A stretch of DNA of 23,820 bases from a virus (Duplodnaviria; Heunggongvirae; Uroviricota; Caudoviricetes). Within the stretch, counting starts at the first letter, position 1. Each line of letters starts with the position of its first letter. A program made the position numbers. The stretch is taken from IMG/VR virus record IMGVR_UViG_2534681938_000038; one strand, given 5' to 3'. Shown here piece by piece: positions 14,833 through 17,800 of this stretch.

Positions 14833-17800
14833 TAAAGAGGATAGATGGAGTTTAATGGCCATGAGTATCAAGCGGTCAAAAAGAAGTTCATCTATTCATT
14901 GAAAGCATAAGGCCATCTGAGTATATCCGTAATGATCTGGATATTGTCTATAACATCAATGACCGGACGATAGATATCGGTGAGCAGCGTCCTGTATGGC
15001 AGGGTGAGGCAGGTGAAAAAACGTCCTGCCATCAACAAGAATCAAGTGCATCCGCTCTCTGGACAGATGGAAAATTTATTGGATGCAAAAAGATATGAAA
15101 TAACACCTGTATAGCACGGAGCTTTCTCTGACCGATGCACTTGAAGTTGTTAGGGCTGACCCAGCCTGCTGTTTCTTTAGGTAAGAGAAAAGAGATTTAG
15201 GAGATGAAAGGTCGCAGAGGTGCGGCCTTTTTTATTGAGAGTGGATCTTGAACGGAAATTCTCAAGACTTGAGTCTTGCATGCAAATCAATTCCTGGATA
15301 AACTCGATCTGAGTCAATAACTTAGAGAGAGAGCAAATGGCAAAGTCAAACGTTAGCGTGCAGGCATTCAAGGACTTCCTTGAAGAGCTTATGTCGCTGA
15401 ACATAATGAAGGAGGCCACCGCTCGAAATTTAAAAAACTCATCCGCTCGCCTCTTAACGGTAGTCCAAGAAGAGGAAATGGGTGATGTTACTCAGCTTGA
15501 TGTGAATGAGCTTGCCGAGCGATACATCAACGCAACTGAGCCGAAGCCTAGCGACAGCAGCATTACTGCATATAAAAGCCGCATGGAAAGTGCAATCAAA
15601 AAGTTTGTAGCTTTCCAGTCTGGTGAAGAAATCCCATACACTCCGATTGACAAAGAATCCAGTGAGGAAAAAGATTTGACTGGCGAACCAACAAAAGTCG
15701 AAGGCAAGGCTAATGCACTTCATACCTATGATCTTCCAGTAGTTCTTCGACCTGAATCAGGGGTTACAGTAACGATTAAAGGCATTCCTAACGATATCAC
15801 AAACGAAGAAGCCGAACGCATCTCTTCAATTCTGAAGGTTTACGTTCGGCCTCAATAATGCAAAAGCATTCAGCACAATGTCCAACTCCCCAGTCCGACA
15901 TTGATGCTGTTTAACCAGAGCCTCCAAAAGGAGCCCTTGTTAAGGTACACAATATTTGCGATGTAACCTTAGCGCGTCTGGTACATTTTTTCAAGCGGTT
16001 GTAGGGCTGCCGCCAATATGAGAAAACACAGATGTCTACATACAATTTGAATGACCAATTCGATCGAGAAGTTCATGTGAATGCCTATGAACGGATAAGG
16101 CATGGAAATCTTGAACATGTGTGTGAGCATTATCGCTCAAGGCCACACCGCTAATCATCAACCCGGCCTCCATGCCGGGTTTTCTTTTCCTCTCGCCCAA
16201 AAAAACACATAACCAATTGTATTTATTGGAAAATAAATAGATACAACTCACTAAACAACGCAATTCTGATCTCTCCTTACATCGCCGAGGCAATACACCC
16301 ACGCTAAAAAACAATACTATTAAATACAAAGCGTTGTAAAAAAACGCCCCGTTTTAGAACAAATTGTATTGACCAAGTGAAGTACATATCGTACTATTTA
16401 ACCATCAGCAGGACGCTGGAAGCCAAATGGAACAGACTGGCAGGCTCTTTAAACAACGTCGACTCTCGACTACGTGGCTGAAAAGCCAGATCACCCAACC
16501 ACATAAGCTGTGGGATGCAATGCCGAAGCAACCGTCTCAGGAGGAGCTTCGAGATTGCATCGCCAAAGTTTATTCGGGAGGAATCTATGTCCAGAAAAAC
16601 AGAATTTAAAGGCACCGCAGCTTCTCGCCGTAGAGCTCGTCGCGCAAACCTGCAAAGTCAGGAGGCGATTAGCTCCGACAAACTACACAGGCCAACCCCA
16701 TCACGAGTGGTCTTACAATGCAAACGCAAACCAGCAATGAGAGCAGAAGTAATAACACTGACAACGTTGACCAGAAAATATGAAGGCTCAACTTGTCTTC
16801 CAAATGTAGCTCTTTACGCGGCAGGCTACCGTAAATCCAAACAACTGACAGCAAGATGACTTGTGTTGGTCGCCAGAAAATGAAATTAGGCAGCAAACCA
16901 CTTATTTGAGGTGATATATGGAATTTCATGAAAGTGCGATTTGTGATTTTCGCGCTAACGCAAATTCAGTAAAACCACAGCCAATTGCAGTTCTTTTTAA
17001 AACAATGGGTGCGTGGGCTGTTTTATGCTTCGCCGCTGACGACACTGACGCAAGAATGGCAATAGGACAAGAGATGGAGATGGACCCGACAAACGATGAA
17101 TTCATAATTTATGGCGCTCCATCTAATTACTTACTTGATACCTGCAACATTTACAACAAGGCTGCCTGATGGTGGCCTTTATTTTTGGCATAAACAACAG
17201 AATAAACACAGCACTGTGTATTCATTCCAACGAGTGAATACACGGAGCAATGTCGCTCGTAACTAAACAGGAGCCGACTTGTTCTGATTATTGGAAATCT
17301 TCTTTGCCCTCCAATGTGAGGGCGATTTTTTATCTGTGAGGATATGAACAGATGTCAAACATCAAAAAATACATCATTGATTACGACTGGAAAGCATCAA
17401 TAGAAATTGAAATCGACCATGACGTAATGACAGAGGAAAAACTTCACCAGATTAATAATTTCTGGTCAGACTCTGAATACCGACTCAATAAACACGGCTC
17501 TTTATTAAATGCTGTATTAATCATGCTGGCGCAACATGCTCTGCTTATAGCAATTTCAAGCGACTTAAATGCATATGGTGTTGTGTGTGAGTTCGACTGG
17601 AATGATGGAAATGGTCAGGAAGGATGGCCTCCAATGGATGGTAGCGAAGGAATAAGAATTACCGATATCGATACATCAGGAATATTTGATTCAGATGATA
17701 TGACTATCAAAGCCGCCTGAGCGCGGCGTTACCGCATACCAATAACGCTTCACTCGAGGCGTTTTTCGTTATGTATAAATAAGGAGCACACCATGCAATA

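Follow-up and report, generated by a model that had tools for sequence, protein, structure and literature searches.

A terminator-bounded cassette between cI and PL of Shiga-toxin prophages: an acidic protein with an integrase core-binding-like domain, a structured RNA and a small open reading frame

The viral record IMGVR_UViG_2534681938_000038 (IMG/VR; Caudoviricetes), the whole of which (23,820 nucleotides) is referred to here as the window, is a lambdoid prophage of the Shiga-toxin (Stx) type, its + strand being equal to the leftward direction of lambda. Between the repressor gene cI and the operator-promoter region OL/PL lies a cassette that runs from terminator to terminator (15206-16190, +) and is read as having four parts: a predicted promoter of its own, an acidic protein of 173 residues, here called X, a structured RNA of 173 nucleotides (nt) and a small open reading frame (ORF). 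We describe the anatomy of this cassette and its conservation, the linkage of X, RNA and small ORF, the structure of the RNA and the fold of X, and we propose, with a probability of roughly 0.4, that the cassette is a regulator-plus-payload module in which X keeps a microprotein silent. An earlier, sequence-only reading had singled out the insert as a two-protein element. The finding is real and more interesting than first described: the discrete, terminator-bounded, moron-type unit stands, and a third part, the RNA between the two ORFs (15859-16031), had been overlooked.

Limits and distribution of the cassette

The order of genes in the window is cI (helix-turn-helix, HTH, plus Peptidase_S24; 14135/14182-14835), the insert, OL/PL and N (PF25694; 16587-16859), which agrees with the annotated VT2-Sakai record and bears out the placement of the insert in the slot equivalent to that of lambda rex. 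In the Sakai genome, the region corresponds to positions of about 1,255,700-1,256,700 of NC_002695.2 (minus strand). The stretch 14836-16190 is 100% identical to VT2-Sakai/Sp5, the Stx1-converting phage, Nil2 and about 40 further Stx phage records, and is present in 235 of 5,426 complete Escherichia coli genomes, nearly all at an identity of at least 99%. Its carriers are Stx1 and Stx2 prophages of E. coli O157:H7, while relatives of the cassette were met with in the prophages that Salmonella, Cronobacter, Yersinia, Proteus, Providencia, Morganella and Serratia carry. Its place is between cI and N in E. coli, in Salmonella, where the cI genes are of several kinds, and in Cronobacter, Yersinia, Proteus and Serratia; in other phages it is found after the replication genes, near the tail genes or after the integrase.

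The unit starts at about 15206 and not at 14836, because the upstream stretch 14845-15181 (+), which had been taken for a palindrome-rich regulatory region, turned out to be mostly a decayed gene of the DUF3024 family lying outside the cassette, with two frameshifts and one in-frame stop. The intact 113-residue DUF3024 protein of SH2026Stx1 matches the window (tblastn, E 2e-42) at 81-85% identity, in three frames and across the in-frame stop, with identities of 45/53 and 38/47 in different frames. In SH2026Stx1 and in Proteus prophages, an intact copy (PF11225) separates cI from the X homologue. Across genera, conservation does not set in before the hairpin of the upstream terminator (about 15206), and two insertion sequence (IS) events start there too, which argues for 15206-16190 as the unit. 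In E. coli O157:H7 strain 9234 (locus L080), the 5' edge of the cassette is the exact insertion point of IS1203. In E. coli O157:H7 strain NE92 (L079), an IS-associated deletion extends from this edge through the cassette, PL, N, cIII and kil into gam; it leaves cI intact and removes both X and the small ORF.

Terminators had been suspected on both sides, and both fold well. The upstream one (15206-15237, +), which forms the 5' limit, consists of the hairpin AAAGGUCGCAG-AGGU-GCGGCCUUU (15206-15231) and a U-run (-15.9 kcal/mol, z -3.75), and the hairpin is kept, with variable loops, 5' of X in E. coli, Salmonella, Cronobacter, Yersinia, Proteus and Serratia. The downstream one (16160-16190, +; hairpin 16160-16181 plus U-run; -14.3 kcal/mol, z -3.66) forms the 3' end, was also picked up by a terminator scan and is assigned to the pRM transcript in the VT2-Sakai annotation. 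A terminator of the form ACCCGGC..GCCGGGU(U)n or ACCCGC..GCGGGU(U)n follows the small ORF within about 15 nt at 16/16 inspected loci.

A sigma-70 promoter, TTGCAT-17 nt-TAAACT, is predicted from the sequence at 15276-15304 (+). The hexamers and the 17-nt spacing are conserved among relatives and the sequence of the spacer is variable (TTGCAA-17-TAGAAT in Proteus, TTGACT-17-AAAAAT in Serratia); a strongly conserved 5' untranslated region (CGATCTGAGTCAATAACTTAGAGAGAG) and then a Shine-Dalgarno sequence follow downstream. The inverted repeat CAAGACT-TG-AGTCTTG (15263-15278), the right arm of which overlaps the -35 hexamer, is a candidate operator. It is unique within the window, and its 7-bp arms were equalled by 23/300 shuffles; distant clades have different repeats at a similar position, with arms of up to 12-13 bp (0/300 shuffles). 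Neither a second copy of the repeat nor one of its half-site was found within the window, and hence no other target of X is visible there. GATC (Dam) sites stand at 15244-15247 and 15307-15310, and most loci have one to four in the 120 nt 5' of X; in clades with a small ORF of class C (see below) they lie inside the inverted repeat itself. These sites could point to methylation-sensitive expression.

Morons are extra genes that stand as autonomous units within lambdoid genomes (Juhala et al. 2000, as cited in PMC4104026). The cassette agrees with such an element in having its own promoter, here a predicted one, and terminator, and in being variably present at a fixed boundary.

Protein X, the structured RNA and the small ORF

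Protein X (15337-15858, +; 173 residues) corresponds to ECs1184, H0093, Sp5 ORF23 and phrog_2602. Both it and the small ORF (16032-16154, 40 residues, +) lie where they had been placed by eye, and X is acidic as described (isoelectric point, pI, 4.85; net charge -8). It has 44 close homologues (41-99% identity), in Enterobacterales only, and a full profile search retrieved 650 representatives of 50%-identity clusters at E <= 1e-3, 239 of them at E <= 1e-10; nearly all 650 are full-length (165-200 residues). Substitutions in X are concentrated at third codon positions, which diverge by up to about 38% (66/174, Cronobacter). The largest branch of the family is formed by distant, solitary chromosomal homologues in Rhizobiales, which stand beside carB or lepA in no phage context and with no called small ORF, as in Mesorhizobium loti (L258 5001-5558) and Neorhizobium galegae (L261 5001-5567).

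An AlphaFold model of X from 71 aligned sequences (mean predicted local distance difference test score, pLDDT, 89) consists of a four-helix domain (residues 8-95) resembling the core-binding (CB; SAM-like) domain of integrases, a disordered acidic linker (residues 102-127) and a conserved beta-hairpin plus helix (beta-beta-alpha; residues 130-169). Structure prediction and a Foldseek search had been proposed for this protein at the outset; all Foldseek matches were non-significant, and the C-terminal domain was left unclassified. The best structural matches were the CB domains of lambda Int, IntI4, XerA/D/H and phage integrases. Sequence matches are sub-threshold, with an E of 0.047 to Phage_int_SAM_1 (Pfam) for X of the window and SAM-domain matches for 7 among the 70 other aligned homologues, and two Mesorhizobium members of the family carry the UniRef label 'Core-binding (CB) domain-containing protein'. 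The basic residues R30, R82 and K89 are invariant and K33 and R38 nearly so; they are located on helices 2 and 4.

X thus has the four-helix CB domain of the tyrosine recombinases (lambda Int, XerC/D, IntI; Pfam Phage_int_SAM_1/4/6), but a catalytic R-H-R-Y domain was not detected (no Phage_integrase match at E <= 1), residues 128-173 being the beta-hairpin and helix. Lacking this domain, X is not a recombinase. It further differs from these enzymes in having no arm-binding domain, in its 45-residue beta-beta-alpha end of unclassified type, in its acidity and in a similarity that stays below curated thresholds. MrpR of SPbeta and SroF of phi3T are integrase-derived repressors of about 320 residues, full-length and catalytically dead, whereas X has the CB-like domain only.

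No Pfam model matched either ORF above threshold, and none covers the X family. NCBIfam and PADLOC gave no match to either ORF (zero families of PADLOC-DB 2.0 at E <= 1), a PDB sequence-profile search gave spurious weak matches only, and PHROGs assigns both ORFs solely to families of unknown function; in Pfam, PADLOC and the other libraries, neither ORF matched a catalogued toxin, antitoxin or defence family. Rfam likewise had no match (see below). The initial impression of two uncharacterised proteins without a recognised motif holds. By these searches, the cassette belongs to none of the known families of defence systems, toxin-antitoxin modules, recombinases or RNAs.

The 173 nt between the ORFs (15859-16031, +) form a structured leader, or intergenic, RNA that we term the long type. 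This is the best-conserved segment of the cassette, with 92-93% nucleotide identity to Salmonella and Cronobacter compared with 82-84% for the X coding sequence (CDS), and its single-sequence fold has a z-score of -3.56. Just 3' of the X stop codon stands the hairpin P1 (15871-15909, +; z -5.7); the layout further comprises a long-range helix, ACCAGA/UCUGGU, around two inner hairpins, the conserved motifs UAGCG and UCAAG, and a 3' hairpin, GCGG..CCGC. In the variant of the window, the U-run/helix flanking the last hairpin is predicted to be able to pair with the Shine-Dalgarno region of the small ORF. The tip of the first hairpin (15883-15898) is inverted between relatives (ACTCCCCAGT in the window versus ACTGGGGAGT in Salmonella L012 and L051), which looks like a flip that keeps the stem. 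Just 5' of the structured RNA, where the 3' coding part of X is best conserved, lies a 21-nt imperfect inverted repeat (15808-15853, 76% complementary), by which the RNA structure may reach into the X CDS.

There are at least two structural types of this leader, the short type being that of Proteus, Serratia and many IMG/VR phages. RNAalifold gave 34 pairs for the short type, 16 of them with compensatory double changes, and 49-51 pairs for the long type, 9-11 of them with compensatory changes; for each type the observed covariation was reached by 0/500 shuffles. In the short type 94% of cells are paired, against 34-50% with the partners slid by 1-3 columns, and in the long type 94% against 32-49% with the partners slid. 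The long-type alignment holds 6-8 sequences only, and its covariation support is weaker for that reason. About 10% of the paired cells are G.U, which favours the + (mRNA) strand. These comparisons indicate that neither CDS is as strongly constrained as the RNA, the helices of which covary.

Both types follow a common plan of a post-stop hairpin, a long-range helix around inner hairpins, a U-rich linker and a 3' hairpin before the Shine-Dalgarno sequence of the small ORF, with invariant UAGCG and CAAG motifs. The covariance model of neither type detects the other, so that homology of the long and short types is argued from this architecture and the TAGCG and CAAG motifs only; their common descent is plausible but unproven. 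A mixed alignment of all leader types gave no structure in RNAalifold, because the types misalign. Rfam, in a comparison that took in C4 antisense RNA, the lambda thermoregulator and the prophage small RNAs AgvB, AsxR and STnc100, had no match at E <= 1 in window positions 13500-17500 and none at E <= 0.5 in the equivalent region of six other loci. The known prophage small RNAs EcOnc/AsxR/AgvB, StxS, HnrS and Pas were rejected as the identity of the RNA, all of them mapping to late regions.

The small ORF of the window (16032-16154, +; H0092, phrog_21154) encodes a His-rich peptide of 40 residues (MSTYNLNDQFDREVHVNAYERIRHGNLEHVCEHYRSRPHR), the His/Cys character of which, pointed out from the sequence, amounts to five His and one Cys; RefSeq annotation no longer includes it. 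It belongs to class A (40-44 residues, His-rich). The small ORFs of class B have 47 residues, the pattern CxxC...CxC and a weak match to treble-clef zinc fingers, and those of class C have 57-61 residues and a pI of about 10. Class A is kept as an ORF, with 6/9, 10/16 and 17/26 of the differences falling at third positions in Salmonella, Cronobacter and Yersinia, respectively; an orthologue of H0092 in SH2026Stx1, where X is only 40% identical, shares V.V..Y.RIR.G.LEHV..H.RS.P. Differences at codon positions 1/2/3 number 68/57/326 in class B and 197/133/818 in class C. We take the sequence comparisons to mean that X and the 40-residue ORF are genuine genes and not chance ORFs, and that all three classes of small ORF are under purifying selection as proteins. 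A basic nucleic-acid-binding peptide was considered for the 40-residue ORF and ruled out for class A of the window, which has a pI of 7.0.

In every complete cassette examined, a small ORF on the same strand starts 150-175 nt after the X stop codon. Such an ORF is carried by 29/29 non-identical IMG/VR loci found via X, and in the X-found loci searched with the covariance models the intervening stretch fits one RNA model, except in a variant of the L019/L055 type that fits neither. Starting from a sequence pattern of the short-type RNA, 28/28 IMG/VR loci have X upstream and a small ORF downstream. A loose DNA pattern run on metagenomes returned 120 stretches, only two of which were confirmed by nhmmer, and a scan of genome contigs gave a single locus. 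The parts are nevertheless exchangeable: near-identical X proteins are accompanied by short RNA and class C in L074 and by long RNA and class B in L152.

Among the related phage loci examined, the link between X, RNA and small ORF is broken only in that of Yersinia phage YP3 (L020 3501-4110), which is truncated. There, X directly follows the integrase and is itself followed by a terminator-type hairpin, without a small ORF; only about the first 75 nt of an L019/L055-type leader are kept, the remainder being replaced by a gin invertase region. Escherichia phage Phi06_2987 (L081 1305-2550) has a class-C-like protein of 49 residues about 158 nt 3' of a pair formed by an XRE repressor and a Peptidase_M78 (ImmA/IrrE-type) protein. 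This locus adjoins the integrase and has no X, and its leader, which also folds well (z -2.96), fits neither RNA model. Such an arrangement fits the idea of a payload under a regulator.

Possible role in the lysogen

In a study of Sp5, 43 marker-free in-frame deletions were made in a K-12 lysogen by sacB allelic exchange; deletions of ORF23 (ECs1184, that is, X) and ORF21 (ECs1180) were not obtained in K-12(Sp5), and the authors suggest a role in stable lysogeny for ECs1184 (Mondal et al. 2016; PMC5155283). ECs1180 is phrog_2471, an 83-residue ORF just after N (16918-17169). A 2025 study in Nucleic Acids Research recovered ECs1184 in the RNA-associated proteome (TRAPP) of strain Sakai, borderline at a false discovery rate of 0.065 (PMC7618764).

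In the regulator-plus-payload module that we propose, the cassette would be transcribed in lysogens from its own promoter, independently of cI and PRM. X would be the regulator, acting through the conserved basic patch on its CB-like domain upon the inverted repeat that overlaps the -35 of its own promoter, upon the structured leader RNA after its stop codon, or upon both, and would keep expression of the downstream microprotein low. The microprotein would be the effector, which once released would be growth-inhibitory, prophage-destabilising or phage-excluding. All three of the central steps are inferred: binding of nucleic acid by X, repression of the small ORF by X, and a harmful action of the small protein. 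With a harmful microprotein under the control of X, loss of X alone should not be tolerated and loss of the whole region should be; X resists deletion, yet strain NE92 has lost the whole region, and phage YP3 has X without the small ORF. On a further reading, which we regard as somewhat doubtful, the cassette would be a new kind of three-component prophage module, an addiction or exclusion switch built from a CB-fold protein, a dedicated RNA of about 160 nt and an interchangeable microprotein, with the RNA as the conserved hub recognised by X. Lysogens that carry Shiga-toxin phages, or many of the other enterobacterial prophages, would then rely on the cassette.

Several observations weigh against the module. 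X is acidic overall, its N-terminal domain included, and the small protein of the window is neutral rather than basic. The promoter inverted repeat is non-significant in many loci, and homology is not detectable among the three classes of small ORF. The L074/L152 mixture argues against a specific contact between X and the microprotein, and the solitary Rhizobiales genes, set among housekeeping genes, suggest that X is in some way active by itself. The failure to delete ECs1184 is a negative result, the reason for which its authors call unknown (PMC5155283), and ECs1180, which was equally refractory, lies in the PL operon, so that an explanation by lysogeny control is equally open. The signal of X in a polynucleotide kinase (PNK) crosslinking assay was like that of the green fluorescent protein (GFP) control (PMC7618764); the TRAPP and PNK data together imply that lysogen cultures produce X and that its binding to RNA is, at most, weak or highly specific.

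Parallels to the module can be drawn with several known systems. The immI-type operons of P1 (c4 RNA-icd-ant) and P22 (mnt/arc/sar-ant), in which a regulator and/or a structured RNA silences a small downstream ORF, share its logic by analogy: the operon stands outside the main repressor and loss of the regulator is not tolerated by the lysogen. The cassette differs from them in having no C4 or other Rfam match, no antirepressor domain and, as we read it, a regulator with a CB fold. Type II toxin-antitoxin systems likewise have two co-transcribed genes with the putative neutraliser first, a promoter palindrome and a first gene that resists deletion, and the layout of X, with an N-terminal domain of DNA-binding type, a flexible linker and a small C-terminal domain, is like that of a neutraliser. 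In the cassette, however, the genes do not abut but are 173 nt apart (150-175 nt in the family) with a conserved RNA between them, the 'toxin' has 40-61 residues and comes in three unrelated classes, X also occurs on its own, and no toxin or antitoxin family is matched.

The slot itself suggests another role. Lambda rexAB and 933W stk are lysogen-expressed accessory genes of the lambdoid cI-PL slot, and rexAB is dispensable in lambda. The cassette occupies the same slot, on the cI strand and upstream of PL/OL, and likewise varies between similar phages. It is set apart by the lack of sequence or domain similarity (Pfam, NCBIfam, PADLOC), by a promoter of its own behind a terminator in place of read-through from PRM and by the structured RNA that it contains. 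Furthermore, rex can be dispensed with, whereas ECs1184 is reportedly undeletable, which argues that X is not a dispensable rex-like accessory. The sequence-only reading had taken the insert, from its position, as a candidate for defence; slot and architecture fit this idea, but no known defence system is matched. Anti-phage defence or superinfection exclusion, with X, RNA and microprotein as a sensor and effector harmless to the uninfected lysogen, would be in keeping with the moron architecture (predicted promoter and terminators), with the modular cassette that shuffles among unrelated phages and varies in presence by strain, and with the production of X in lysogen cultures, and it overlaps with the regulator-plus-payload reading if the system acts by abortive infection. 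The empty searches of PADLOC and every other library, the expectation that a dispensable defence gene should be deletable and the housekeeping surroundings of the solitary Rhizobiales homologues make it unlikely in our view.

We consider it similarly improbable that X by itself is a DNA-binding regulator or nucleoid-associated protein that maintains quiescence of the prophage, for instance through the silencing of a promoter for lytic genes or an antirepressor, with the RNA and small ORF as accessories. The single copy of the promoter repeat in the window and the acidity of X speak against this, the movement of the cassette between phages with unrelated immunity and lytic regions, and to other positions, is hard to fit with a phage-specific repressor, and the constraint on the RNA and the constant small ORF are left without explanation. 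X might instead be a catalytically empty mimic of a recombinase CB domain that competes with Int/Xer at core sites and so stabilises the prophage or blocks incoming integration. Its best structural matches and missing catalytic domain are what such a mimic would have, X directly follows the integrase gene in YP3, and the failed deletion could reflect loss of the marked prophage. Closely related X proteins, however, stand beside different integrases and attachment sites in different genera, which makes a single core-site specificity unlikely; the CB-domain sequence similarity is sub-threshold only, and the RNA and small ORF have no role in the scheme, which we hold to be most unlikely. Finally, the cassette might have no important function in the lysogen and be a selfish recombining moron, the deletion failure being technical or a cis effect. 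That failure is a single negative result with no known cause, and IS insertion or deletion at the cassette edge is tolerated in natural strains. Strong purifying selection on all three parts across genera, higher on the RNA than on the coding sequence, and the success of the same screen and method with 43 other Sp5 deletions render this very unlikely.

If the cassette is required for viability or stability of the lysogen, to which the single knockout attempt points, it would be a second control point, besides cI, for the maintenance of Shiga-toxin prophages and would bear on the induction and spread of toxin phages. It also offers leads in its own right. The protein family counts at least 650 clusters (50% identity), has no Pfam model and shows an integrase-like fold that was not expected; the RNA motif is supported by covariation and missing from Rfam; and the microproteins form a conserved set.

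Neighbouring genes of the prophage

In Salmonella and Serratia prophages, a small acidic gene on the reverse strand stands between the cassette and PL (L009 5968-6177, L011 5969-6172, L007 6871-7047 and L017 5870-6040; - strand); the window has none. A DUF2767 (PF10965) match is on record for the L009 copy only, the copies of L011, L007 and L017 being without a match.

The window itself shows two lesions outside the cassette. Its cI has a 1-bp deletion in a T-run (at about 14439) relative to VT2-Sakai, which splits it into an HTH ORF (14135-14515) and a Peptidase_S24 ORF (14461-14835); given this frameshift, the prophage probably needs a repressor provided in trans, or else is impaired in some other way. 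An IS3-family element (11315-12528, - strand; IS629/IS1203-like, with orfA at 12202-12528 and orfB at 11315-12205) truncates the replication gene O (12554-13231), and the truncated O and the frameshifted cI together mark the prophage of the window as defective.

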